64,000 nt of DNA, taken from NCBI GenBank assembly GCA_963815865.1, contig CAWFIK010000003.1:283771-347770 (forward strand). The letters are read 5' to 3'. Of this stretch, positions 1 to 62,173 are shown piece by piece. Numbering within the stretch: position 1 is the stretch's first letter; the number at the start of each line of letters is the position of its first letter. The translations under genes and the position numbers were made by a program. The notes under the pieces were generated by a model, which saw only the letters and a program-made list of their open reading frames with translations, searched no databases and was not told the DNA's origin. The stretch comes from an uncultured Acidobacteriota bacterium (lineage in GTDB: Bacteria; Acidobacteriota; Thermoanaerobaculia; UBA5066; Gp7-AA6).

Positions 1-909
1 CGTCAGCTCGTCGGTCGAGACGACGCCGGAGAGCGGAAAGCCGCCGCCGACGCCCTTGCCGACGGTCAGGATGTCGGGGACGACGCCGTCGTGGTCCACG
101 CCCCACATCTTTCCGGTCCGGCCGAAGCCGGTGATCATCTCGTCGGCGATGAGAAGAGCGCCGTGCTCCTTCGCGATCGACTGGATCGCGGGGAGAAAGC
201 CCGGCGGCGGAATGACGTTGCCCGCCGTGCCCTGCATCGGCTCGACGATCACGGCGGCGACGGCACCCGCGGTCTGATCGCGGATCACGTCGCGAGTCTT
301 CTCCGCGCAGGCGATCCCGCAGTCGGGATACGTCAGCGAGAGCGGGCAGCGGTAGCAGTAGGCGTAGGGCGCGGAGTAGCAGCCGGGCGCGAGGGGGCCG
401 AGGCCCTTCTTGAAATCGCCCCAGAGGAGCGGCAGCACGCCGCCGGTCTTGCCGTGGAACGCGCCCGTGTATCCGACGAACTCGTATTTCTTCGTCGCGG
501 ACTTGGCGAGCCGGAACGCGGCCTCGACCGCCTCGGCGCCTCCGGAGAAGAGCTGGATGCGCGTCAGACCGGGCGGCGTGACGCTCGCGAGCAGCTCCAG
601 GAACTTCGCCCGCGTCTCCGTCGTGAAGCTCCCGAAGGTCAGACGCTCGGCCTGTTCCTTCAGGCGCGCGACGTAGTGAGGGTGACAGTGGCCGACGCTC
701 CCGACCGCGATGCCGGCGATGAAATCGATGTAGCCGTTGCCGTCCTCGTCGAAGAGGCGGCTTCCCCGGCCGCGGGCCATCGCGAGGCCCGAGTAGAGCG
801 CGAAGGATTGCAACCCCGGCGCCATGTGGCGCCCCTCGTCTTCAAAGATCTTCCGCGACCGCGGCCCAACGGCGTTCCCTTTCTTCGCATTCTTCACGGC
901 GTCCGTCAT
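1..909 (-). CDS. Class-III PLP-dependent aminotransferase, partial; the C-terminus runs off the window start. Last gene of the dxs-ispH operon; HpnO-like candidate.
   Basis: The minus-strand translation from ATG at 909 reads MTDAVKNAKKGNAVGPRSRKIFEDEGRHMAPGLQSFALYSGLAMARGRGSRLFDEDGNGYIDF...GAVAAVIVEPMQGTAGNVIPPPGFLPAIQSIAKEHGALLIADEMITGFGRTGKMWGVDHDGVVPDILTVGKGVGGGFPLSGV, typical of class-III aminotransferases including the PLP-lysine region (TVGKG). There is no stop before position 1. The start overlaps the upstream stop (ATGA at 906-909). Confidence 0.85.
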   Translation of the reverse strand, partial: MTDAVKNAKKGNAVGPRSRKIFEDEGRHMAPGLQSFALYSGLAMARGRGSRLFDEDGNGYIDFIAGIAVGSVGHCHPHYVARLKEQAERLTFGSFTTETRAKFLELLASVTPPGLTRIQLFSGGAEAVEAAFRLAKSATKKYEFVGYTGAFHGKTGGVLPLLWGDFKKGLGPLAPGCYSAPYAYCYRCPLSLTYPDCGIACAEKTRDVIRDQTAGAVAAVIVEPMQGTAGNVIPPPGFLPAIQSIAKEHGALLIADEMITGFGRTGKMWGVDHDGVVPDILTVGKGVGGGFPLSGVVSTDELT

Positions 910-1793
910 TCTGGCACTCCGATCTCGACGTGTCCTCGGAACCGCGCCGCCAGGTACGAGGCGATCCGCTCCGACGCGGTGTCGCGGTAGAGGGCGAAGC
1001 TCGGCCAGGCGTTCAAGTCGATGACGATGATCCTCCCGTCGCGCGTCGCGATCGCGTCGCCGCCGTAGACCTCGAGACCCAGCGCCGCGGCCGCCTGCGA
1101 AGCGGAGCAGGCGAGTTCCTGCGGGTCGAACGGATGACCTTCCAGGTTCTGGTCCCGGTGATAGAACCACTGGAACCACCCGCCCGGCTCCCTCTCGTCC
1201 GCCGTTGCCGGGAGGCCGGCGTCCCCCACGCCGTAGAACTTGATCAGGTCTCCCTGGATGTGCTCCTGGAGGACCGCCCGCTCGATGCCGCGGGCGCGCA
1301 TCGCCGCCAGAGCCTGGGCCAGCGCCGTCGGGTCCGCCGCGAACGCGACGTCGCCCGGCTTTGTGGCATGCACATCGCCGCGCTTGACCCAGCAGCCGGT
1401 CGGCGCCTCCTTGAACGATTTGCCGATAGGAATGGGAAGGTCGGTGGGGACGAGGACGCTCGCGGGAAACGGGACGTGGCAGCTCTCGAAGAGGAGCAGT
1501 GTCCGGTCGCGGTAGGTGTTGCGGATCGACGAAGCGCTGTTGACCTGGCAGACGCCCTGCTCCTGCCACCGCTCGAGCTTCTTGAGAATCTCCAGCTGTT
1601 CGCACATGACGAAGAGGAACGGCGGCGGGTTCTCGGCGGAGGCCGTCTCCTCGGCGGTCTTCAGCGAGACGTGGAAGCCTTTGCTCTCGAGATGCCGCGC
1701 GGTGGCCTCGAGGATGCGGGCGTCGTCCGTCTCGCGCCCCGGCGAATGCGCGAGCTCGCGGTAGATGCCCCAGCAGGCCATCGCGGGCGTCAT
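906..1793 (-). CDS. ATP-grasp domain protein (RimK-like carboxylate-amine ligase family)
   Basis: Translation MTPAMACWGIYRELAHSPGRETDDARILEATARHLESKGFHVSLKTAEE...GCWVKRGDVHATKPGDVAF...ERAVLQEHIQGDLIKFYGVGD...IIVIDLNAWPSFALY shows ATP-grasp fold hallmarks. ATG at 1791-1793 overlaps the nucleotidyltransferase stop (ATGA). Stop at 906-908 overlaps the aminotransferase ATG. Confidence 0.75.
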   Translation of the reverse strand: MTPAMACWGIYRELAHSPGRETDDARILEATARHLESKGFHVSLKTAEETASAENPPPFLFVMCEQLEILKKLERWQEQGVCQVNSASSIRNTYRDRTLLLFESCHVPFPASVLVPTDLPIPIGKSFKEAPTGCWVKRGDVHATKPGDVAFAADPTALAQALAAMRARGIERAVLQEHIQGDLIKFYGVGDAGLPATADEREPGGWFQWFYHRDQNLEGHPFDPQELACSASQAAAALGLEVYGGDAIATRDGRIIVIDLNAWPSFALYRDTASERIASYLAARFRGHVEIGVPE

Positions 1794-2500
1794 CGGGACG
1801 GTCTCCGGGTCGACAGGTCCGCCGCCAGGGCGACGTCCGCCGCGCGGTCCACGTCCACGACGGTCTCGATGGAGATTCCGCGGACGGTCTCTCCGCTCTC
1901 GAGAAGCCAGGCGAGGTACTCGCGCAGACGCCCGAGGGTCGGCGGGGCGGCCGCTTCCCGCGCGCGCCGCGAGAAGCGATAGATCCCCGCGGTGACGGCG
2001 TCTCCCGAGTCTCCGCCGATTCTCGTGATTCTTCCGTCCGCGGTCTGGCGGACCCAGAGCGGCTTCTCGTCGGAGACGAACGGAGTGACGGCGAGGACCG
2101 TCTCTTCCGCAGCGGCCGTCGCGGCCCTCTCCGCGAAGCTCACGAAATCCGCGCGCGGGCACCAGGCGTCCACCGTCGAGACGAGCGCCGGTCCGGGCGG
2201 GAGCACGCCCAAGATCTCCCGATAGCTCTCGTAGGAGGAGGCCGTCGTCTTGACGAGGATCTCGATCGGAGCGTGCGGGAAGCGCGACCGGACGAAGCGC
2301 GCGCAGTCCTCTTCCCGGGCATTGAAGATGATCGCGAGTGTCTCGACTCCCGCGGCGAGGAGATTCCCGACGGCGTGCTCGATCAATCGAACGCCCTCGA
2401 TCGGCACGAGGGGCTTCGCCATTTCCCATCCGTCCTCGCGCAGCCGGCTCCCGTCTCCCGCCGCGATGATGCCTCCCGCGCGGATTCCGGCGGGACTCAC
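1790..2500 (-). CDS. Sugar-phosphate nucleotidyltransferase (NTP_transferase family)
   Basis: GTG start at 2498-2500 gives MSPAGIRAGGIIAAGDGSRLRE...KPLVPIEGVRLIEHAVGNLLAAGVETLAIIFNAREED..., a G-x-G-x-R-L nucleotidyltransferase signature. The start overlaps the HAD gene stop (GTGA). Confidence 0.8.
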   Translation of the reverse strand: MSPAGIRAGGIIAAGDGSRLREDGWEMAKPLVPIEGVRLIEHAVGNLLAAGVETLAIIFNAREEDCARFVRSRFPHAPIEILVKTTASSYESYREILGVLPPGPALVSTVDAWCPRADFVSFAERAATAAAEETVLAVTPFVSDEKPLWVRQTADGRITRIGGDSGDAVTAGIYRFSRRAREAAAPPTLGRLREYLAWLLESGETVRGISIETVVDVDRAADVALAADLSTRRPSR

Positions 2501-3252
2501 AGGAACATCTCCGCGAGCTCGTCCAGGCGCCGGATCACCGGGTCCCCGGGACAGCAGGAGCGCCGTCCATTGGAATCTTCGCCGGCGAGCAGGACGTGGC
2601 GCATTCCGACAGTCCGGGCGCCGATCATGTCCCGCTCGAGGGAATCCCCGATGAAGACCGATTTCCCGGGCTCGACGGAGAGCTGCGAAAGCGCCGCGTC
2701 GAAGATCGCCCGATCGGGCTTGCGGCAGCCGACGATGGCAGAGTCCACCTCGGCGGAGAGGAGCTCATGGATCCCGATCTCCCGGCAGACGGCCGTGAGA
2801 TTCCCGTAGAAGTTCGAAACGATAGCGAGCTTGTAGCGCGGAGCGAGTCTGCGGAGAAGTCCGGCGTTGCGTGAGAGGCTCTCGAGGCAGCCGGCGCTGA
2901 AGCGCGCCGCGACGCGGGCGGCCACGGCTTCGCCGCCCGTCCCGAGACCGGCCGCGACCCCGCGGGCGAGCCGCCCGACCGTCTCCGCGAAGGGCAGCGA
3001 CGCGGGAACGGACCCTTCGATCGCGTCGTCCGCCGCGAAGAACGCCCGATCGAAGCGTTCGCGCGGGATCTCTTCCTCCTCCCGCCAGAGCCGGAAGAAT
3101 CGTTCCCGCCAGGCGATCCCCGGGCCGTCGAGCGTTCCGCCGAAGTCGAACAGCAGGGCGGTGATGCCAGATTTGTGATTTGTGATTTGTGATTTGTGAT
3201 TTGGGGATCCCGAGTCCCGAGTCCCGAGTCCCGAGTCCCGAGGTGTGGTCAC
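2497..3252 (-). CDS. HAD-superfamily hydrolase/phosphatase with a repeat-encoded N-terminal leader
   Basis: HAD motif I ITALLFDFGGTLD plus downstream RLAPRYKLAIVSNF and FIGDSLERDMIGA motifs. The only in-frame canonical start is GTG at 3250-3252, overlapping the upstream stop TGA at 3249-3251 (GTGA). This puts the heptamer arrays at 3171-3245 in frame, encoding TTPRDSGLGTRDSGSPNHKSQITNHKSG. Confidence 0.6.
   Translation of the reverse strand: MTTPRDSGLGTRDSGSPNHKSQITNHKSGITALLFDFGGTLDGPGIAWRERFFRLWREEEEIPRERFDRAFFAADDAIEGSVPASLPFAETVGRLARGVAAGLGTGGEAVAARVAARFSAGCLESLSRNAGLLRRLAPRYKLAIVSNFYGNLTAVCREIGIHELLSAEVDSAIVGCRKPDRAIFDAALSQLSVEPGKSVFIGDSLERDMIGARTVGMRHVLLAGEDSNGRRSCCPGDPVIRRLDELAEMFL
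3171..3245. repeat. Two adjacent heptamer tandem arrays: (ATTTGTG)x4 plus ATTTGGG at 3171-3205, then GATCC, then (CGAGTCC)x4 plus CGAGGTG at 3211-3245
   Basis: Directly visible. On the minus (coding) strand they read (GGGACTC)n then (CACAAAT)n. They fill the whole space between the hpnL-like stop and HAD motif I. Confidence 0.95.
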
Positions 3253-4325
3253 GACAGTCTTCTCGCGGCGACGGTTTCCCTGGCCTGCCAGTGGAAGAAG
3301 ACGAGGAGGCCGGGGACGATCCAGGCGAGCTCGCGGCCGCGCCGCGCGAGGCTGTAGGCGGCGCCGGGTCCCGCGCCCAGGCCGAGCAGCAGGAAGACGC
3401 CGACGCGGATCCCCTCCGCGCTTCCGATGCGGGCGGGAATGAAGAGGAGCATGTTGTTGAGCGCCATCGCGAGCGCCTCGACGGCGAACGCCGCGACCCA
3501 GCCCGATCCGGGGGAGAGGAGCCGCAGGATCACGTACGTCTCGACGAGACCGCCGCACCACCCGAGGAAGCACCACCCCAACGCCGCCGCGTAGCGCCCG
3601 CGATGGTTCCGGTAGAAGTCCTGAATGCGGCCGTCGAGCTCCCGGGCGGGCGCCTGAAAGCGATCGAGGCGCCGGGCGAGGAACTTCCAGCGCGCGAGCA
3701 GCCGGAGCACCGGCGAGTAGGTCCCGCGGCGCAGGCCCCAGGTCATGAGAGCGAGGAGGACGCCGAGACCGGCCGCGCCCGCGAGCGCCGCGAGCCGCGC
3801 CGCGAGCGGCATCGGGAACCGCCAGAGGGCGGCGCCGACGCCGAGCGTCACGAAGACCCACTGCGCCGCGAGGTCTGCATGCTTGTGAACGGTGAGGGTG
3901 CCGATCGTCCTCGCCGTCTCCGAGGCGCCGAGCAGCATGCGGGCCTTCAGCGGCTCTCCGGCCACTCCACCGGGCGCGAGGTAGTTGAAGGAGTCTCCTG
4001 CCAGATAGACGCCGAAGAGTCGGACGAATCCGGGACGTCGGGACGGGTTGAAGATCACCCACCAGCCGAGCGCGAACGCGGCCTGCGCCGCGGCGTACAG
4101 GACGACGAGGAGCGCGAACCAGCCGCCGATCCGCGCGAGGTTCGACGCGATAGCCGGCCACCCCACCGACCGGAAGAGGAGGGCGAAGAGCGCGAGGCCG
4201 GCGAGGAGCAGCGCGAATCGAACGGCTTCCCGGCCTCCGAATCGGCGGCGCCGGGGCGGCGGCAGGGCTTCGCCCGGGGCGAGGTCTCCCGCCTCGTTGC
4301 GATCGAGTTGCGACCCGGCCGTCAC
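3249..4325 (-). CDS. UPF0104 (lysyl-PG-synthase-TM-like, flippase-like) membrane protein; the family of hopanoid-associated HpnL
   Basis: A 358-aa polytopic membrane protein, MTAGSQLDRNEAGDL...FALLLAGLALFALLFRSVGWPAIASNLARIGGWFALLVVLYAAAQ...LNNMLLFIPARIGSAEG. It sits between ispH and the HAD gene in the same operon, the position HpnL takes in hopanoid clusters. Confidence 0.7.
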   Translation of the reverse strand: MTAGSQLDRNEAGDLAPGEALPPPRRRRFGGREAVRFALLLAGLALFALLFRSVGWPAIASNLARIGGWFALLVVLYAAAQAAFALGWWVIFNPSRRPGFVRLFGVYLAGDSFNYLAPGGVAGEPLKARMLLGASETARTIGTLTVHKHADLAAQWVFVTLGVGAALWRFPMPLAARLAALAGAAGLGVLLALMTWGLRRGTYSPVLRLLARWKFLARRLDRFQAPARELDGRIQDFYRNHRGRYAAALGWCFLGWCGGLVETYVILRLLSPGSGWVAAFAVEALAMALNNMLLFIPARIGSAEGIRVGVFLLLGLGAGPGAAYSLARRGRELAWIVPGLLVFFHWQARETVAARRLS

Positions 4326-4334
4326 GTTTTCCGC

Positions 4335-5327
4335 CTAGAGAAGGTCGGGCCGGCTCGACTTCAAGAGGTCTTTGAGCTCGATCGGGAGCGGGAAGTTCAC
4401 GTCCTCCTGCACCGTCTCGAACTCCTCGACGGTCTTCACGCCGAGCTTCTCGCGCGCGTAGTCCACGACTTCCCGCACGAGGATCTCCGGCGCCGAAGCG
4501 CTTGCCGTCAGCCCGAGGACCCGCACCCCGGCGAGCCACTCCGGTTGGATATCCGTCGCCCGCTCGATCAGGTACGAAGGGATGTTGTGGGCGCGGCCGA
4601 CTTCGCAGAGGCGCAGCGAGTTCGAGCTGTTAGGCGCGCCGAGCACGAGGAGCGCGTCCACGTGCGGCGCCATCGCGCGGACCGCGTCCTGCCGGTTCTG
4701 GGTGGCGTAGCAAATGTCGCCCTTGGGAGGGCTGACCATGTTCGGGAAACGGCGCTTCAGGACCTCGACGATCTCCCGCGTGTCGTCGAGCGAGAGCGTC
4801 GTCTGGGTCAGGTAGGCCACCCGGTCGGGATCGGGAACCTCGACCGCTTCGGCTTCCTCCCGATTGCCGACGAGGCGGATCGCGCCCGGCGCCTCCCCGA
4901 GCGTCCCGATCGTCTCGTCGTGTTCCTCGTGCCCGATCAGGATGATCGTGTAGCTCTTCTTCGCGTAGTGGATCGCCTCCAGGTGCACCTTCGTGACGAG
5001 GGGGCAGGTCGCGTCGATCGTCTTGAGCTTCCTGCGCCCGGCGTCGGCGCGAACGGTGGGGGAGATGCCGTGGGCCGAATAGATGAGCCACGATCCGTCC
5101 GGCACCTCGGTGACTTCCTCGACGAAGATGGCGCCTTTCTCCCGCAGCTCGTCCACGACGTAGCGGTTGTGGATGATCTCCTTGCGCACGTAGACCGGCC
5201 CGTCGCAGACCTGCAGGGCCCGTTCCACGACGTCGATCGCGCGCACGACCCCCGCGCAGAAACCGCGCAGCCCGGCCACGAGGAGTTTTTCGACCCGCAC
5301 GGCGCCGGGCTCCGACGCTACGACCAT
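4335..5327 (-). CDS. ispH: 4-hydroxy-3-methylbut-2-enyl diphosphate reductase
   Basis: A 330-aa protein with conserved LytB/IspH blocks GFCAGVVRAI, TCPLVTKVH, ICYATQNRQ and LVLGAPNSSNS. Confidence 0.95.
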   Translation of the reverse strand: MVVASEPGAVRVEKLLVAGLRGFCAGVVRAIDVVERALQVCDGPVYVRKEIIHNRYVVDELREKGAIFVEEVTEVPDGSWLIYSAHGISPTVRADAGRRKLKTIDATCPLVTKVHLEAIHYAKKSYTIILIGHEEHDETIGTLGEAPGAIRLVGNREEAEAVEVPDPDRVAYLTQTTLSLDDTREIVEVLKRRFPNMVSPPKGDICYATQNRQDAVRAMAPHVDALLVLGAPNSSNSLRLCEVGRAHNIPSYLIERATDIQPEWLAGVRVLGLTASASAPEILVREVVDYAREKLGVKTVEEFETVQEDVNFPLPIELKDLLKSSRPDLL

Positions 5328-7268
5328 GTCACCGTCTCCACCGCCTTCTCCTCATCGCGCGACGCGGGCGCTTTCCCTCCGGGCGCCGCCAGGCGCGCGA
5401 GCTCCGGATACAGGGCGAGGACCGTCTCCACGACTCCCGCCGCGTCGAGCTTCAGGTTGGCCCGCTGGAGCGCCTGCGGGCTGTGCTCGACGAACTGGTC
5501 GGGGATCGCATGGACCCTCAACTTCTCGGACGGAAGGCCCGCCGCCTGGAAGGCCTCGAGCACGCCGCTCCCGAACCCGCCCGCCGAAAGGTGCTCTTCC
5601 AGCGTGAGGATGCGCGGCGTCATGATCGCGATCTGGCCGAGCAGCTCCCGGTCGAGCGGCTTGGCGAAGCGGGCGTCGGCGACGGCGCAATCGATCCGCC
5701 GCTCCTTGAGCATCTCCGCGGCGGCGAGGGCCACCGACACCATCGAGCCGTAGGCCAGCAGACAGACATCCTTCCCCTCGCGGAGGAGCTCTCCGCGCCC
5801 GATCGGGACCGTCTTGAGCTCCGGATCGAGATCGACGCCGACTCCGAGCCCGCGGGGATAGCGGATCGTGAACGGCCCGCCCGATTCGATCGCGGTGAAG
5901 AGGAGGTGCTGCAGCTCGTTCTCGTCCCTCGGCGCCGCGACGACCATGTTCGGCAGGGGGCGCGTGTAGGCGATGTCGAAGATCCCGTGGTGGGTCTTCC
6001 CGTCGTCGCCGACGAGGCCCGCCCGGTCCGCGCAGATCGTGACCGGGAGGTTCTGCAGGCAGACGTCGTGGATCAGCTGGTCGAACGCGCGCTGCAGGAA
6101 CGTCGAATAGATCGCGACGACCGGCTTCCATCCGGCCTTGGCCATGCCGGCCGCCATGATCACGGCGTGCTCTTCGGCGATCCCGACGTCGTACACGCGG
6201 TTGGGGAAGCGCCTCTGGACCTCGATCAGGGCGGTCCCCTCGAGCATCGCGGCGCTGATCGCGACGATCTTCTCGTCCTTCTCCATCAAGCGCAGGAGCG
6301 TCTTCGCGAAGACCTGGGAGTAGGTGTAACGCACGCCCGGGCCGGCGGCCGCCGAAGGGGTGCCCGGCTGGTGGAACCTGGAGGGGTTTTCCTCGGCCAG
6401 GGTGTAGCCGCGTCCCTTGTGCGTCAGGACGTGGACGACCACGGGCGTGCCTTCGCCGGAGATGTCCTTGACGCTCTTCAGGGCCTCGTCGAGCTCCTCC
6501 AGGTTGTGTCCGTCCACGGGTCCGATGTACTGGAGGCCCATCTCCTCCCAGATCAGGTTGGGGAAGAAGAGCCCCTCGACCGACGTCTTGACCTTGCGCG
6601 CGATCTTCCACGCTTCCTCGCCCAGGGGGAGCTTCGAGAGGAGCTTCTGTCCCGCCTCCGTCAGCTTCTGGTACTTGGGATGGAGCATCAACCGGTTGCG
6701 CCAGTGCGCGAGCCAGCCGACGTTCTCGGAGATCGACCAGCCGTTGTCGTTGAAGATCACGACGAGCCTTTTGGGCTTCAAGTGGACGATGTTGTTCAGG
6801 GCCTCGTAGCTCGGTCCCGAGGTCAGCGCGCCGTCTCCGACCACGGCGACGACGTACGGCTCTTCCGGGGCGTCCTGGAGCGCGACCGCCATCCCGAGCG
6901 CGTAGGACAGGCCCGGTCCCCGCGTGTCCTGCCGCGAGCATGTCGTGCGGGCTCTCCGCCGGCTCGGCGAAGCCGGACAGCCCGCCGGGCGTTCGAATCG
7001 TCGGGAACCGGTCCCGCCGGCCGGTCACGAGCTTGTGCGTGTAGCACTGGTTCGAGGTGTCCCAGACGATCCGGTCCTTCGGACTGTCGAACGCGCGGTG
7101 GAGGGCCAGCGTCAATTCCACGACGCCAAGGTTGGAGGCCAGGTGACCGCCGGTCCGGGTAATCGTCTCGACAATGACGTTGCGACAGTCCTGGGCGACC
7201 TCGCCCAGCTCCTCGATGCTCAAGGCCTTCAGGTCCTGAGGGCCTTCAATTTTGTCCAATCGTGACAT
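5318..7268 (-). CDS. dxs: 1-deoxy-D-xylulose-5-phosphate synthase, interrupted by a single-base frameshift near 6909-6920
   Basis: The N-terminal frame starting at 7268 reads MSRLDKIEGPQDLKALSIEELGEVAQDCRNVIVETITRTGGHLASNLGVVELTLALHRAFDSPKDRIVWDTSNQCYTHKLVTGRR...GLSGFAEPAESPHD. The C-terminal frame ending at 5318 continues LSYALGMAVALQDAPEEPYVVAVVGDGALTSG...IAEEHAV.... The frames switch in a GGG/CCC run (minus-strand ggggaccgggcctgtcc). Confidence 0.9.
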
Positions 7269-7354: not shown

Positions 7355-7400
7355 CTCCTAATATATCAGCTTGATAGCATTCGGGTTTCAGCCCGTATCG
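7355..7400. promoter_or_regulatory. AT-rich core of the dxs / ferritin-like divergent intergenic region (TAATATAT ... TTGATA); putative divergent promoters
   Basis: ctcctaatatatcagcttgatagcatt is the only AT-rich stretch in the 205-bp divergent gap. Hexamer assignments are weak. Confidence 0.2.
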
Positions 7401-7473
7401 AGTGTTGCAATTCCCCGGCCGGGCGTGCAATCTCCCGTCTCGGGAGTTGGTCGAGAGGAGGTCCGGCAAGGAC

Positions 7474-8136
7474 ATGGATGGCTTCAAGATCGGGTCGGAC
7501 GAACACGCCCGTCTCTTCTGCGGGACGTTCGTCGAGACACACCGTCCGTTCCGGGCAGAGGACATCGTCTGGCCGGAGCTCGACCCGGAGAGCCTGGCGA
7601 GGTTGAAGGGCCTTCCCGTCTGGGACGAGGCGGCGCGGACCGAGGCCGCCACGGCGGTCAAGGTACAGACTCTCGGGGACACCGAGACGGACCCCGTGCT
7701 CAAGGAGGCGATCGCCCTCCAGGGGTACGAAGAGGGGCGCCATGCGGAGATCATCGCCCTCTTGACGAAGGCATACGGGATCGAGACGGCACCGTTTGGC
7801 GAGCCGGAGAAGCCGAAGAACCCGACGTGGACGTTCCTGCGCACCGGCTACGGCGAGTGCCTCGATTCCTTCTTCGCGTTCGGCCTCTTCGACATCGGGC
7901 GCAAAAGCGAGTTCTTCCACAAGGACCTGATCGCGATCTTCGACCAGATCATGCAGGAGGAGGCGCGGCACATCCTTTTCATCGTGAACTGGGCGGCCTA
8001 CCTGCGCGCCCGAAAGCCGTTCCCGCTGCGGCCAGTGTTCGACGCGCGGCGCGCCTGGAACATCGTTGCCCAGGCCTTCGACCGCGTGAAGGGCGCGATG
8101 CAGATGGCGGGCGGCGGCAACGGGAGACGGCGGTGA
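7474..8136 (+). CDS. Ferritin-like diiron-carboxylate protein (two E-x-x-H motifs)
   Basis: ATG at 7474 is preceded by GAGGAGG. The 220-aa product MDGFKIGSDEHARLF...YEEGRHAEIIALL...IMQEEARHILFIVNWAAY carries two EExxH motifs about 80 aa apart. It is transcribed divergently from dxs. Confidence 0.6.
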   Translation: MDGFKIGSDEHARLFCGTFVETHRPFRAEDIVWPELDPESLARLKGLPVWDEAARTEAATAVKVQTLGDTETDPVLKEAIALQGYEEGRHAEIIALLTKAYGIETAPFGEPEKPKNPTWTFLRTGYGECLDSFFAFGLFDIGRKSEFFHKDLIAIFDQIMQEEARHILFIVNWAAYLRARKPFPLRPVFDARRAWNIVAQAFDRVKGAMQMAGGGNGRRR

Positions 8137-8173: not shown

Positions 8174-8380
8174 TTGAAGAGCCACTCGGCCTTCGGCGAC
8201 TTCAAACTGCGCTCGTTCCTGGAGCTCTGCCTGGCCGAGAACGAGCGGCGCCTCTCGCCATACGACCCGCGGCTCCTCCGCCCGACGCTCGTCCCCGGGT
8301 TCGTGCGGCGCTTCGTGAAGGTCTTGCCGAAGTCCAGGCCGGGACGCGGGACTCGGGACGCGGGACTCGAGCCAAGGTGA
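8174..8380 (+). CDS. Uncertain 68-aa ORF (TTG start) whose C-terminus is encoded by the (GGGACGC/GGGACTC) heptamer array
   Basis: Translation MKSHSAFGDFKLRSFLELCLAENERRLSPYDPRLLRPTLVPGFVRRFVKVLPKSRPGRGTRDAGLEPR* has a plausible composition. The repeat-derived tail PGRGTRDAGLE matches the repeat-derived HAD leader PRDSGLGTRDSGS. It is in the same frame as the downstream 8423 gene, separated by TGA at 8378-8380. Confidence 0.2.
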   Translation: MKSHSAFGDFKLRSFLELCLAENERRLSPYDPRLLRPTLVPGFVRRFVKVLPKSRPGRGTRDAGLEPR

Positions 8381-8420
8381 TCGTTCCGAGTTCCGAGTTC
8401 CGAGTCCCGGGTCCCGACTA
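8341..8420. repeat. Two heptamer arrays: (GGGACGC/GGGACTC)x4 at 8341-8368, a 17-nt spacer, then (CCGAGTT/CCGAGTC/CCGGGTC)x5 at 8386-8420, ending 2 nt before ATG 8423
   Basis: Directly visible. The first array uses the same GGGACTC unit as 3211-3245, in the same orientation relative to the downstream gene. Confidence 0.95.
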
Positions 8421-8422
8421 GG

Positions 8423-9586
8423 ATGGGAAACGACCTCGTCAGCGCCTGCGTTTTCTGCGCGGGCCTGCTTCTGGGGCTCGAGCTGCCGCCCCCCCCGGGC
8501 TACCACGCCGAGGTCGGGTTCTCCTATGCGACCGCGGCCCGGCGCTATCGGACGCCGGACGGGCTCGACGATGTTTCGGACGTCACGCCCAAGTTCGCCC
8601 TGGTCGGTTTCGGCTGGAATCGTCCGCCGGCCGCGGGACTGGGGGCCGGGACTCCCGAGGCGGAGTGGCGGGCGCGCGTCGCGCTCGGGCCCTCCCACGA
8701 CGAGCAGTCACAGGCCCCGCTGGCGATCACGAACACCAACGCGACCGGGACGGGGCGCTTCGAGAACTACGCGGTCGTTCTGCGTTACCCGTTCTCCTCG
8801 CGCGATTCCGTCGAGGTGGGTCTGACGCGGCGCTATCACTCCTCGACCGACGAGATCGACATCGGCCAGGAGCGCTTCGTGCTCTCCGAAACGCGAGTGC
8901 TGGCGGCCGAGCGAGTGGACGCCGGGATCGGGTGGAGGCACCGCTGGCCCGGGTTCGAAGCCGCGCTGTCGGAGCGCTACGTCCGGCCCAACGGCAGCAA
9001 CGCGACGGCCGGCGCCTTCCACATCACCGAGGGGCACCTCTGGGGCGGGACGGCGGAGGCGCGGGCGCGTTGGAAGGGATGGACGTTTTCCGGCTCCGCC
9101 GAATACGCCAGCGGCTCGCTCTCCGTCCACGAGGAGAACCAGCCGAACTTCGCGCCGCGCAACTTCGACGCGAAGGCGACGCTCGAGACCTACCGGCTGG
9201 GAGTCGGTCTCCTCCTCGGAAAGAGGGACTTTTTCCTGCAGGCGGCCTACGATCGTTCCCGCCTTCCGTTCGTGTCCCTCGCGGTCCTCGGCAGCGAGAT
9301 CGCGGCGTTCGAGTCGGGCTACCACCCGGATGCCCGCGCGCGCGTCGTCCTCTGGGACCTGACGGCGCGGCACGAGTTCGCGCCCGGCTTCCGCTTCAAG
9401 CTGCTCCTGCGCACCTCCCGCGGGGACGAGACGCTGACTCTGACGGATGCCTCCGGCGTCCTCCCTTCGCGACAGCTCGACGTCAAGCGGTCGGGCGTTT
9501 TCGGCGCCGGCCTCTCCCGCGCCCTCGGCAGCCCGGAGGCGACCCTCGGCTTCGGAGTGGAGCTTTCGCTGCCCGTCGCGAAGTGA
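8423..9586 (+). CDS. Hypothetical secreted/outer-membrane beta-barrel-like protein
   Basis: The 387-aa product has an N-terminal hydrophobic segment MGNDLVSACVFCAGLLLGLELPPPPG. It has alternating amphipathic, Gly/Tyr/Arg-rich beta-strand-like composition, and strong third-position GC periodicity. Confidence 0.5.
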   Translation: MGNDLVSACVFCAGLLLGLELPPPPGYHAEVGFSYATAARRYRTPDGLDDVSDVTPKFALVGFGWNRPPAAGLGAGTPEAEWRARVALGPSHDEQSQAPLAITNTNATGTGRFENYAVVLRYPFSSRDSVEVGLTRRYHSSTDEIDIGQERFVLSETRVLAAERVDAGIGWRHRWPGFEAALSERYVRPNGSNATAGAFHITEGHLWGGTAEARARWKGWTFSGSAEYASGSLSVHEENQPNFAPRNFDAKATLETYRLGVGLLLGKRDFFLQAAYDRSRLPFVSLAVLGSEIAAFESGYHPDARARVVLWDLTARHEFAPGFRFKLLLRTSRGDETLTLTDASGVLPSRQLDVKRSGVFGAGLSRALGSPEATLGFGVELSLPVAK

Positions 9587-37812: not shown

Positions 37813-38903
37813 GAGTTCGCCCTCGGAAACGCCCGAGGCGCCGGCCCCTCCCGATCCGGCGCGGCAGAGACCTTCTCCCCCGGACGCGCCGAGTCGGAGG
37901 CCGCCTGAACCTCGACGCTCTCTCCGTTCTCGAGCGCCACGTCGAGCAGCGCCACGCGCCCCGCGTACCGCCGCGCCGTCACCTCGCCCGCGATCGAATC
38001 CGGCTCCGCCGCGCTCACGAGTCTCAATCCCTCCGGCCGAACGACGAGGTCAACTGCCGCCCCGTCCCGGAGGCCCTCGCCTCCCGTAGCGCGCCAGACC
38101 GGACCCGCCGCGAGGCGCACGCCTCCCGCCGTCCAGATTCCCGCGAGAACGCTCGACCGCCCGATGAACGTGGCGACGAAGCGGCTCGCCGGTTCCTCGT
38201 AGAGGGCTTCCGGCGGTCCGACCTGCTCCAGTCGCCCCGCGTTGATGACGGCCACGCGGTCGCCCAGGTCGAACGCCTCCTCCTGCTCGTGGGTGACGAA
38301 GAGCGTCGTGATTCCGACCTTCCGGATGATCCGCTTCAGCTCCCGCCGCGTGCGCTCGCGCAGGGTCGGATCGAGATTGGAGAACGGCTCGTCAAGCAGG
38401 AGGACGCGCGGCTGAGGCGCGAGCGCGCGCGCGACCGCGACGCGCTGCTGCTGACCTCCGGAAATCTCCCCGATCCTCCGCCGCTCGAAGCCCGCCAACT
38501 CCACCGCCGCGAGGGTCTCCGCGACGCGGCGCTCCACGTCCGCCCGCGGCATCCCCTGAGCCTCCAGGCCGAACGCGATGTTCTCCCCGACGCTCATGTG
38601 CGGAAAGAGCGCGTAGTGCTGGAACACCATCCCGAACCGCCGGCGCTCCGGGGGGAGCCGCGTCACGTCCTCCTCCTCGACGCGCACGGTTCCGGAGTCG
38701 GGCGTCTCGAACCCGGCGACCAGGCGCAGCACGGTCGTCTTGCCGCTCCCCGACGGCCCGAGCAGCGCCACGATCTCGCTTCGCGAGACCGACAGGGACA
38801 GGTCGGCTGTTACATGCAGATTGCCGAAACGCTTCTCGAGGCGATCGAGGTGAAGGAAGTCGTGAGTTGTGAACTGTGAGTTGTGAGTCGGGTCTCTTAT
38901 CAC
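37809..38903 (-). CDS. ABC transporter ATP-binding protein (FbpC/PotA-like) with a repeat-encoded N-terminal leader
   Basis: Walker A LLGPSGSGKTT, signature ISGGQQQRVAVARAL, Walker B VLLLDEPFSNLD, and a C-terminal TOBE-like domain. The only canonical in-frame start is GTG at 38901-38903, overlapping the substrate-binding-protein gene stop (GTGA). This places the (CACAACT) repeats in frame as IRDPTHNSQFTTHDF. Confidence 0.85.
   Translation of the reverse strand: MIRDPTHNSQFTTHDFLHLDRLEKRFGNLHVTADLSLSVSRSEIVALLGPSGSGKTTVLRLVAGFETPDSGTVRVEEEDVTRLPPERRRFGMVFQHYALFPHMSVGENIAFGLEAQGMPRADVERRVAETLAAVELAGFERRRIGEISGGQQQRVAVARALAPQPRVLLLDEPFSNLDPTLRERTRRELKRIIRKVGITTLFVTHEQEEAFDLGDRVAVINAGRLEQVGPPEALYEEPASRFVATFIGRSSVLAGIWTAGGVRLAAGPVWRATGGEGLRDGAAVDLVVRPEGLRLVSAAEPDSIAGEVTARRYAGRVALLDVALENGESVEVQAASDSARPGEKVSAAPDREGPAPRAFPRANS
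38862..38889. repeat. Heptamer tandem array (GTGAGTT/GTGAACT)x4; on the coding minus strand it reads (AACTCAC)n
   Basis: Directly visible. It lies between the substrate-binding-protein stop (38900) and the ABC ATPase conserved N-terminus. Confidence 0.95.
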
Positions 38904-60739: not shown

Positions 60740-62068
60740 ATGAAGTCGCCGATGATGACGTTCGATCGCCGGGCTTTTGTGGAATGGTTCGACAGGAACC
60801 GCAGGCGCTCGCGGGAGTTGTTCGACACTGTCGTTCCCGAGGCCTACGAAGCGCGCCCGATCCCTTTGCGCAATCCGATCTGTTTCTACGAGGGGCATCT
60901 GCCGGCGTTCAACGTGAACACGCTGGTCAAGAGGGGACTCCGGGAGCGCGGAATCGATGCCGGCTACGAGGTCCTGTTCGAGCGCGGTATCGACCCGGAA
61001 GACGAGTCGGCGGTCGGCCGCGCCCCGTTCCGCTGGCCGTCTCGAGAGCAGATCCAGTCGTACGGAGATCGCGCCGACCGGGCGATCCGGGAGGCGTTGC
61101 TCGAAAAGGACGTCCTCCGCGACGACCAACCTGTGCTCCGCGGCGGCCTTGCCGTGTACACGGTGCTCGAGCACGAGCCGATGCACCAGGAGACGCTGCG
61201 TTACATGTGGCACCGCCTTCCGTTCGACAGGAAGATCCGTCCCGCCTCCGAGCCGCCGTTGCTGGCCGGCAACGGTTCGCCGCCGCCGAGAACCGTCCGG
61301 GTCCCGGCCGGCGTGGCGACGCTCGGCGCCGCGCGCGATCGTGTGCCCTTCGGCTGGGACAACGAATTTCCCGAGCACCGCGTCGAAGTCGCCGGTTTCG
61401 AGATCGACGTCTTCAACGTCACAAATGGCGAGTTCCTGAAGTTCGTCGAGGCGGGGGGGTACGGCAAGCGCGAGCTCTGGGACGAGGAGGGATGGGAGTG
61501 GCGTTCGCGAGGCGGCGTCGAGCACCCGACTTTCTGGGAGCGCGCGGATGGAACCTGGTCCTGGCGCGGAATGTACGAGGCAATTCCGCTCCCCGCGGCC
61601 TGGCCCGTATACGTCTCGCACGCGGAGGCGGAGGCCTACGCCCGCTGGAAGGGGAAACGTCTGCCGACCGAAGCGGAGTTTCACCGCGCCGCCTACGGGA
61701 CGCCGGGCGGCGAGGAGCTCTCCTATCCGTGGGGGGAAGAGCCGCCCGACGAGACCCGGGGGAATTTCGACTTCCGCCGCTCCGACCCGGTGCCGGTCGG
61801 CTCGTTTCCTGCGGGCGCGAGCGCGTGGGGAGTCCTCGACCTCGTCGGCAATGGCTGGGAATGGACTTCGACGGTGTTCAGCGGTTTTCCCGGATTCGAG
61901 CCGATGGCCTCCTACCCCGTCTATTCCACGGACTTCTTCGACGGAAAACACTGGGTCATGAAGGGCGCGTCCCCGGCCACCGCGAAAGAGCTGCTGCGGA
62001 GAAGCTTTCGGAATTGGTTCCGCGGGAACTATCCGTATGTGTATGCGGGGTTCCGGTGTGCCAAGTGA
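60739..62068 (+). CDS. egtB: Ergothioneine biosynthesis sulfoxide synthase (DinB_2 + FGE-sulfatase domains)
   Basis: MKSPMMTFDRRAFVEWFDRNRRRSRELF...FYEGHLPAF...HEPMHQETL (DinB-like iron-binding), then the FGE domain VTNGEFLKFV...VSHAEAEAYARWKGKRLPTEAEF...GNGWEWT. The ATG shares CATG with the divergent peptidase start. Confidence 0.85.
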
Positions 62069-62173
62069 TCGGGTGATCGGAAGATCGGGTGATCGGGTGA
62101 TCGACCGAAGCCTGAGCGCGTCTGCCCCATTTCAATCACCCGATCACCAATCACCCGATCACCAGATTGGCGA
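62065..62173. repeat. Octamer array (GTGATCGG)x5 at 62065-62104 and an inverted, degenerate copy (CGATCACC/AATCACCC)x4 at 62143-62173, about 38 nt apart. A potential long imperfect hairpin spanning the egtB stop and egtD start.
   Basis: Directly visible. Each unit contains GATC. The second array is the reverse complement of the first. Confidence 0.9.

Follow-up and report, generated by a model that had tools for sequence, protein, structure and literature searches.

Introduction

Tandem repeats of very short units have been described at gene boundaries in several groups of bacteria. Here we report on such repeats in a 64-kb stretch of DNA (hereafter the window; 69.2% GC) from an uncultured Acidobacteriota bacterium of the class Thermoanaerobaculia (contig CAWFIK010000003.1, positions 283,771 to 347,770). 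Two perfect heptamer arrays are located between the stop codon of an HpnL-like gene and the core of a gene coding for a HAD-superfamily hydrolase, directly behind a GTG codon that overlaps this stop (hereafter the HAD junction). With a probability of about 0.6, these arrays are members of a lineage-wide family of gene-boundary simple sequence repeats (SSRs) with units of 7–8 nt, which are translated by way of the coupled GTG under conservation of the frame and do not represent an evolved switch. The feature belongs to a known, unexplained class of gene-boundary heptamer repeats, for which the phylum is new; a search of the literature for such arrays in Thermoanaerobaculia or Acidobacteria found none.

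The G-rich heptamers of Xanthomonas (GGGAATC) and Nostoc (GGGGA(C/T)T) are dispersed over the genome, with a preference for about four units, and are concentrated between co-oriented open reading frames (ORFs), less than 50 bp from a start or a stop codon; some of them overlap stop codons (Rehm et al., 2015; PMC4692102). They often form inverted pairs, their length and sequence vary between close relatives, and their role is unexplained. The GGGAATC repeats, which possess G3N4 architecture, form quadruplexes in vitro, and phase variation was judged unlikely by the authors because the neighbouring genes are ordinary metabolic ones (PMC4692102). The arrays reported here share with these sets the 7-nt unit, the G3 tract, the 4-nt loop and a copy number of about 4–5. 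They also resemble them in the location at boundaries of co-oriented genes, the overlap with a stop codon, the presence of an inverted pair (8340–8417), the variation among relatives and the metabolic neighbours. The unit GGGACTC differs from GGGGACT of Nostoc by one base after rotation; the Nostoc heptamer corresponds to the STRR1 repeat. The arrays differ from the Xanthomonas and Nostoc sets in occurring in Acidobacteriota and in lying within an ORF whose coding strand is the G-rich one, an arrangement under-represented in those sets. Those heptamers are genome-dispersed, whereas the abundance here was sampled from 64 kb alone, and the folding model prefers a hairpin over a quadruplex.

The TAACTGA heptamers of Beggiatoaceae, cyanobacteria and Bacteroidetes lie directly upstream of start codons and were proposed to act as translational regulators in this position; those located within ORFs contribute residues to the outermost N- or C-terminus only (MacGregor, 2015; PMC4679880). 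An enrichment of SSRs at the ends of proteins is general and has in part purely structural causes (Lin and Kussell; PMC3315296). Like the TAACTGA and the cyanobacterial STRR heptamers, which occur in 2–6 copies, our arrays are short tandems beside start codons, at operon junctions and at protein termini only. Unlike TAACTGA, which contains stops in the forward orientation and is normally untranslated, the units found here are free of stops on the coding strand and are read from the upstream coupled start. A further difference is that TAACTGA is one genome-wide sequence, while the unit examined here differs between orthologous loci.

The SSR contingency loci of Haemophilus, Neisseria and Campylobacter (PMC11868660) also possess units that are not multiples of 3, near the 5' end of a coding region. 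As in these loci, one unit shifts the frame, three units restore it, and a polar effect on the downstream operon is possible. The arrays examined here differ from them in being short, in belonging to a free-living soil lineage and in being decayed at many orthologous positions. They are also found at non-switchable positions and beside housekeeping-type genes (ABC ATPase, egtB/egtD).

Mycobacterial interspersed repetitive units (MIRU), said to have been described by Supply and colleagues in 1997, are reportedly tandem repeats at the junctions of co-transcribed genes. Stop and start codons that overlap connect the frames of MIRU with the genes on either side, and translational coupling is thereby preserved. 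A stop/start overlap likewise joins the repeat to its neighbours here (GTGA at 3252–3249; NTGA in 15 relatives). Unlike MIRU, with units of approximately 46–101 bp that form separate small ORFs, the units of our arrays measure 7–8 nt and are part of the downstream or the upstream protein.

Anatomy of the HAD junction

The genes of the HAD operon are encoded on the minus strand. The junction comprises the following elements:

3249–4325, minus strand: upstream ORF of 358 aa, HpnL-like/LPG_synthase_TM flippase-like membrane protein (Pfam PF03706, E = 2.7e-27)
3259–3264, minus strand: putative Shine–Dalgarno-like motif GAGAAG, 6 nt upstream of the GTG, assigned from its position and conservation
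3249–3252, minus strand: GTGA stop/start overlap; the NTGA overlap is kept in frame in 15 relatives
2497–3252, minus strand: HAD-superfamily hydrolase ORF of 251 aa, core from residue 30, motif I FDFGGTLD (Pfam PF00702, PF13242 and PF13419; alignment A1)
3208–3242, minus strand: G-rich array (GGGACTC)x5 with five GGG tracts on the mRNA strand, encoding RDSGLGTRDSGS
3170–3203, minus strand: A/C-rich, G-free array (CACAAAT)x4.9, equivalent to (AATCACA)n, encoding NHKSQITNHKS

Tandem Repeats Finder (TRF) identified both arrays as period-7 repeats with 100% matches, with 5.0 copies at 3208–3242 and 4.9 copies at 3170–3203. The chance expectation for a perfect 35-nt array of period 7 is 4e-11 per 64 kb of the window's composition, and none appeared in 100 Markov simulations of this composition. 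The two arrays at this junction are not inverted relative to each other.

The minus strand reads GTG(3252–3250)ACCACACCTC, i.e. GTG ACC ACA CCT C, followed by (GGGACTC)x4 GGGATCC, and continues with CCAAAT (CACAAAT)x4 and CTGGC ATC ACC GCC CTG CTG TTC GAC. The GTG at 3252–3250 overlaps the TGA at 3251–3249, which is the stop codon of the HpnL-like ORF. From this GTG to HAD motif I, none of the frames contains an ATG, GTG or TTG codon, as determined with a script. Both the GTGA overlap and the lack of a canonical start between the hpnL-like stop and motif I, as stated in a preliminary description of this DNA, are thus confirmed. Since the GTG overlapping the upstream stop is the only usable start, re-initiation at this codon and translation of the arrays are the probable course of events. 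Translation from the GTG gives VTTPRDSGLGTRDSGSPNHKSQITNHKSG, then ITALLFDFGGTLD, that is, a low-complexity leader of 29 residues, and the match to the Pfam Hydrolase profile runs from residue 30 (profile position 1). The identical 251-aa protein was annotated by NCBI (P0001) on a contig of 687,547 bp.

Conservation of the frame in related loci

Related loci (L numbers) were collected via protein clusters (P numbers) from assemblies of JGI, ENA, NCBI and Logan. About 190 protein N-termini were compared, and the junction was inspected as raw DNA in 18 loci, in two of which the array is the tail of the upstream gene. The closest homologues of the HAD protein were found in Thermoanaerobaculia, in metagenome-assembled genomes of other Acidobacteriota and in soil metagenomes. 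Nearly all homologues with 57–86% identity display N-terminal leaders of 20–22 residues with a 7-residue periodicity, such as MTPNHKSPITNHKSGVS, VTSSIQNPKSKIQNRSIS, MTSSITHNSQFTIHNSPVS and MTSPIDNRQSSIVNPPVS. In the more distant homologues, which come from Rokubacteria and Methylomirabilota, the N-terminus is short and the junction carries no array.

The upstream stop is overlapped by an ATGA or GTGA start in 15 related loci (16 with the window and L170), always in the frame of the HAD gene. In the relatives, the Shine–Dalgarno-like motifs GGGAG, GAGGAG or GAGGAAG precede the NTGA start by 6–9 nt, and a heptamer array of approximately 4–5 units (1.6 in L166 and L167) begins 7–17 nt behind it. 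A canonical start after the array is absent in most of these loci; it lies 2–5 codons before FDF in L002, L162, L170 and L171. The distances between the start and FDF are 39, 54, 57, 60, 63, 66, 87 and 102 nt. All eight lengths are multiples of 3, for which the probability would be (1/3)^8 = 1.5e-4 were the frame unconstrained.

The repeat unit differs from locus to locus: AATCACA in L161, L163 and L001; AATCCAA in L164, L168 and L082; CACAATT in L083; an AATCGAC-like unit in L165; GATTTCG in L002; and GGGACTC alone in L162. The leader peptides vary as well (NHKSQIT, IQNPKSK, IHNSQFT, IDNRQSS, SDFEFRN, RDSGLGT). As the unit varies while the leader lengths stay multiples of 3, the constraint acts on the frame and not on the peptide. 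A constraint of this kind is expected for initiation at the NTGA and read-through of an array whose amino acids are immaterial. In L081 and L169, the upstream protein ends in a C-terminal tail encoded by an array of the GATTTCG type, and the HAD gene has an ATG of its own (MKTSVLLFDF). This location across the stop indicates that the array is a property of the junction DNA rather than an evolved leader peptide. The claim that both arrays are read in frame as a 29-aa leader is supported by the in-frame NTGA in 15 related loci, and in-frame translation from the coupled GTG is well supported by the comparison of these sequences.

The starts annotated in public databases do not always correspond to the NTGA. 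In L162 (position 3001) and L170 (position 83), the JGI and NCBI gene callers chose a TTG or GTG located 2 codons before motif I, thereby skipping the array. The resulting short proteins, P0006 (L162) and P0015 (L170), were examined as candidate out-of-frame alleles and rejected, since both loci possess an in-frame GTGA start and the callers had taken the later TTG or GTG. Given this disagreement among gene callers, the N-termini at such junctions are systematically mislabelled in the clade.

It could be argued that the arrays form an untranslated intercistronic spacer and that the HAD gene starts at a non-canonical codon past them, for example ATC 3164–3162 or a CTG. HAD proteins normally start a few residues before motif I, the N-termini of distant homologues are short, e.g. 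MMPPKALLFDF, and every AATCNNN unit offers a near-cognate ATC or ATT. We regard such a start as very unlikely: the frame relative to the upstream NTGA is kept at eight leader lengths, the Shine–Dalgarno-like motif precedes the NTGA and is missing after the array, and the codon at the candidate position varies in the relatives (GTT, GTC, ATT, ATC, TCG, TAC, GCA).

That the repeats or their copy numbers are artefacts of assembly or sequencing, a concern raised in the preliminary description, is scarcely credible. A probable 1-nt indel is present in the dxs gene of the window, and the short-read contig of a near-identical strain (L172) breaks inside the array. However, relatives from JGI, ENA, NCBI and Logan possess arrays at this junction in many independent assemblies, with the frame intact, and the contig break is accounted for by 31-mers that are purely periodic and shared with other arrays. 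L172 was assembled independently and displays 2 mismatches in 2.5 kb relative to the window; it likewise contains the CACAAAT array.

Turnover and length changes of the arrays

The leaders differ sharply even within single protein clusters formed at at least 90% identity. Most members of the P0004 cluster read MTPNHKSPITNHKSGV (237 aa), three members begin with MTPNHKSGVS (230 aa), and two possess a leader of the AATCCAA type (238 aa). The 230-aa form (L166/L167) differs from L001 by an exact deletion of 21 nt, or three units, and the approximately 60 nt shown upstream are identical. Other leaders shorter by 7 residues were found in P0037 and P0048, and the leader in the window exceeds that in L161 by 42 nt (six units). 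The suggestion that three units restore the frame is thus borne out by near-identical strains that differ by exactly 21 nt.

Perfect arrays were identified in the window, L163, L164, L168 and L083; L001, L082, L002, L003, L170 and many protein leaders display degenerate or decayed ones. In L003, L170, P0051 and P0075, the decayed arrays are of unchanged length. The HAD proteins of lineages with perfect arrays are only 59–83% identical to that in the window; we infer ongoing homogenisation of the arrays rather than simple descent. For the HAD proteins of the window, L163, L164 and L083, identities of 75–86% were noted as well. In one further locus (L171, 1275–1362), the AATCCAA array of the HAD leader is interrupted by a GC-rich palindromic insert of 27 nt, CCGCCGAAGCCTCGGCGAAGGCGG, with the frame kept.

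A change by one unit was predicted earlier to switch the HAD gene off. When either array is lengthened or shortened by a single unit in silico, translation terminates at codon 164 or 206, with over 130 nt still to go to the coupled start (GTGA) of the next gene; a loss in one array may be compensated by a gain in the other. No out-of-frame array allele was found in the 18 loci or among the about 190 N-termini; this evidence is weak, since minority alleles would be lost in gene calling and in consensus assembly.

Two candidate variants were examined and rejected. The truncated HAD protein P0180 of L165, considered as an 'off' allele, owes its truncation to the loss of 1 nt within motif I; further genes are broken on this contig. 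L172, a Logan contig from run ERR11718635, starts inside the CACAAAT array (1–35) and was considered as a longer allele; the sequence at the break, however, consists of purely periodic 31-mers that any (AATCACA)n array would contribute. Because such 31-mers are shared with other arrays in the metagenome, the break is uninformative with regard to copy number. An exact look-up for near-identical strains gave no match for the hpnL-like protein and one Logan contig, L172, for the nucleotidyltransferase encoded downstream.

These properties invite comparison with a dedicated contingency locus, in which slipped-strand mispairing would reversibly switch the HAD gene together with the coupled genes for a nucleotidyltransferase, an aminotransferase and an oxidoreductase, within what would probably be an operon for envelope-lipid or sugar modification. 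The 7-nt units are positioned in the 5' coding region right after the sole start codon, and the stops predicted for one-unit changes fall ahead of the next coupled start. Perfect arrays in several divergent lineages and the three-unit polymorphism speak for mutationally active arrays, two arrays of the same period can compensate each other, and the hopanoid- and isoprenoid-associated neighbours make a surface-related role conceivable. Against this, all 18 loci and the approximately 170 repeat-encoded leaders among the N-termini are in frame, and the sole frameshifted contig, L165, is broken outside the array. The arrays count about five units, while classical phase-variable tracts are usually much longer, and the persistence of decayed arrays of unchanged length in many relatives would be unexpected were mutability selected. 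Arrays also occur at ABC ATPase and egtB/egtD genes and as non-coding inverted pairs; they are not confined to genes for surface structures, host interaction or restriction–modification. For the analogous published repeats, phase variation was judged unlikely (PMC4692102). A contingency switch is plausible; it is currently disfavoured as the primary explanation, and we consider it rather unlikely.

An even bolder extension, to which we assign a low probability, is that the arrays after coupled starts in soil Thermoanaerobaculia act as reversible frame switches, a 'phasome' toggling downstream operon segments. If so, the envelope-lipid/sugar-modification cluster and transport operons would be turned off and on stochastically, and the two-array leader of the window would be a vernier with several on and off states. 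Contingency loci would then extend to high-GC, non-pathogenic environmental bacteria, and heptamer repeats would gain a function.

Arrays at other gene boundaries

The window contains seven arrays at four loci, and every locus is a junction of co-oriented genes, with a start or stop codon within approximately 50 bp. Apart from the HAD junction, the following features were identified:

38858–38903, minus strand: GTGA (38903–38900) overlapping the stop of a solute-binding protein gene, followed by a CACAACT/CACAGTT array that encodes the leader THNSQFTTH of an ABC ATPase
8340–8417, plus strand: inverted pair of arrays, 8340–8369 with 8383–8417, with a predicted hairpin of -72.8 kcal/mol
62065–62103, plus strand: octamer array (GTGATCGG)x4.9, with the stop of an egtB-like gene (GTGA) in the first unit (TRF)
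62135–62167, plus strand: inverted copy of the octamer array, 30 nt downstream, pairing with 62065–62103

Orthologues of the ABC ATPase in the same clade also possess heptamer-encoded leaders (PNHKSQITNHKS, THNSQLTTHN, SIGNPQSS), and the distance from the start to the array varies widely among them. Distant orthologues lack such a leader and start with MSEFLRLE. The peptide PNHKSQITNHKS occurs in leaders of ABC ATPase orthologues and in HAD leaders alike.

Within the inverted pair, (CGGGACK)x4 at 8340–8369 encodes the C-terminal tail of an ORF ending with the TGA at 8378–8380, and (GTTCCGA/GTCCCGA)x5 is located in the 42-nt spacer, ending 5 nt before the ATG at 8423. The ORF at 8174–8380 (68 aa) displays a coding-like GC content at third codon positions (GC3). 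It lies behind the gene at 7378–8136 in another frame and may be the tail of this gene after a frameshift.

Both octamer arrays are part of the open egtD frame upstream of the Methyltransf_33 (EgtD-like) core. A would-be in-frame TGA is abolished by the degenerate third unit of the octamer array (AAGATCGG). Candidate starts of the EgtD-like gene are ATG 62037, GTG 62073 and GTG 62097.

Across 860 kb (the window and the fetched loci), period 7 was the commonest among arrays of at least 3.5 copies (10 of 29). Outside the HAD junction, L086 was the only fetched locus with a period-7 array. In this locus (1007–1034; 54% identity), (TGAGAAT)x4 extends from the HAD stop codon to the ATG of the nucleotidyltransferase gene, one junction downstream, and is untranslated.

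RNA structure and accessibility

A local hairpin of about -20 kcal/mol is predicted for the G-rich array, and the A/C-rich array is predicted to be unpaired. The array (GGGACTC)5 contains five G3 tracts with 4-nt loops, and ViennaRNA with quadruplex energies gave the same hairpin as the minimum free energy structure, a result that speaks neither for nor against a quadruplex. The 171-nt junction folded no better than shuffled sequence (z = 0.12). The predicted energy required to open the Shine–Dalgarno/start region was lower with the natural leaders than with random leaders of 69% GC in 12 of 12 loci, by approximately 2.8 kcal/mol on average. The repeat units are AT-rich and G-poor, with 29–43% GC, compared to 69% GC in the genome. 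Possible links of AATCAC/GGTGATC to the 3' end of 16S rRNA and of GACTC to GANTC methylation sites were considered and dropped as coincidences.

Arrays of this composition may have been retained as cis elements that tune expression at coupled junctions, with their translation being incidental: the G-free tract would serve as an unstructured ramp or standby site and the G-rich tract as a quadruplex or hairpin brake. Such a role would fit the G-poor units in a GC-rich genome and the lowered opening energy at all 12 loci, as well as the G3N4 architecture of (GGGACTC)5, which in the case of GGGAATC forms quadruplexes in vitro (PMC4692102). Also, two genes display arrays of changing sequence at a constant position, and a translational regulatory role was proposed for TAACTGA heptamers next to start codons (PMC4679880). 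The structure predictions agree less well with it: no structure beats shuffled sequence, ViennaRNA prefers the hairpin over the quadruplex, and no Rfam match was obtained for the region. Coupling itself provides for an open start region, since this region is unwound by the ribosome that terminates there; the start-to-array distance is widely variable in the ABC ATPase orthologues; and decayed, GC-enriched leaders persist (P0051, P0075). A cis-regulatory role is therefore advanced here only as a tentative possibility.

Proposed explanation and significance

In the explanation that we favour, a gene-boundary SSR family translated in a conserved frame, ribosomes finishing the HpnL-like gene would re-initiate at the GTGA, helped by the putative Shine–Dalgarno-like motif GAGAAG. 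Translation would pass through the G-rich repeat (42 nt) and the A/C-rich repeat (approximately 35 nt), adding a tail of 29 residues before the HAD core. The arrays would expand, contract and change their unit by replication slippage, possibly also by recombination. Purifying selection would remove all lengths off the 21-nt multiples. Only multiples of 21 nt (three units) would become fixed, because other lengths destroy the HAD protein and uncouple the downstream genes. As secondary effects, the G-free array may prevent the region of initiation from folding despite the 69% GC of the genome, and a local hairpin or quadruplex may arise in the G-rich array. Frameshifted 'off' variants presumably arise at some rate, as a by-product of mutation without a dedicated switching function. 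This explanation is carried by the observed anatomy of the junction and conservation of the frame, by the polymorphism of 21 nt and by the recurrence of arrays at other genes.

Several points weigh against it. Throughout the clade, two genes unrelated to each other retain arrays at an equivalent position, which is more than a purely neutral insertion would obviously predict, and their homogenisation inside a coding region, with the cost of frameshifts, could point to a selected function. With regard to the proposed secondary effect, the difference in accessibility is nil for L162, with the G-array only, and for the decayed L003, and base composition largely accounts for the accessibility effect. 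The start site of the HAD gene and the slippage are both inferred from sequence, and the probable assembly indel in dxs puts frame arguments drawn from the single window at some risk.

Heptamer tandem repeats are over-represented in several bacterial phyla, and this locus adds a new phylum. Because the arrays reside in reading frames at orthologous positions in many relatives, their evolution is directly readable: units turn over and only 21-nt steps survive. The speed of slippage and the frequency of out-of-frame states could thus be addressed using existing metagenome reads.

Genes around the junction

The upstream ORF scored 123 bits against the HpnL model TIGR03476, which is below its cut-off of 195.65, and has a GC3 of 0.89. 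The operon adjoins hopanoid- or isoprenoid-associated genes, namely dxs, ispH and the hpnL-like gene. Downstream of the HAD junction, the genes are connected by three 4-nt overlaps:

2497–2500, minus strand: GTGA overlap of the HAD stop and the start of the nucleotidyltransferase gene (Pfam NTP_transf_3)
1790–1793, minus strand: ATGA overlap at a downstream junction
906–909, minus strand: ATGA overlap at a downstream junction

The preliminary description had counted four further GTGA couplings in this operon; the window contains these three overlaps, one GTGA and two ATGA. Among the gene functions that it had named, the nucleotidyltransferase and the aminotransferase (class III, Pfam Aminotran_3) were recovered, but the supposed ATP-grasp gene, which encodes 295 aa, gave no Pfam hit. 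No promoter or terminator was found inside the HAD junction, and an Rfam scan of 2900–3600 returned only a chance microRNA hit (E = 0.22), far under the gathering score.

The dxs gene (5318–7268, minus strand) is split across two frames near 6890–6900, with the Pfam domain DXP_synthase_N represented by positions 1–115 in one frame and 123–274 in the other. One extra base in the short G/C run ACCGGGCCTGTCC explains the split, which is probably a 1-nt assembly indel, or else marks a pseudogene. Since this indel makes the frames in the window alone not fully reliable, the argument presented above rests on the comparative data.

Motif I of the HAD family is invariantly FDFGGTLD in alignment A1, so that the second Asp of the canonical DxDxT is replaced by Gly. 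The name 'phosphatase' given to these proteins by some sources is doubtful, because this Gly leaves the general acid/base of HAD phosphatases missing. A CC pair near the C-terminus of the HAD protein is also invariant in the same alignment.

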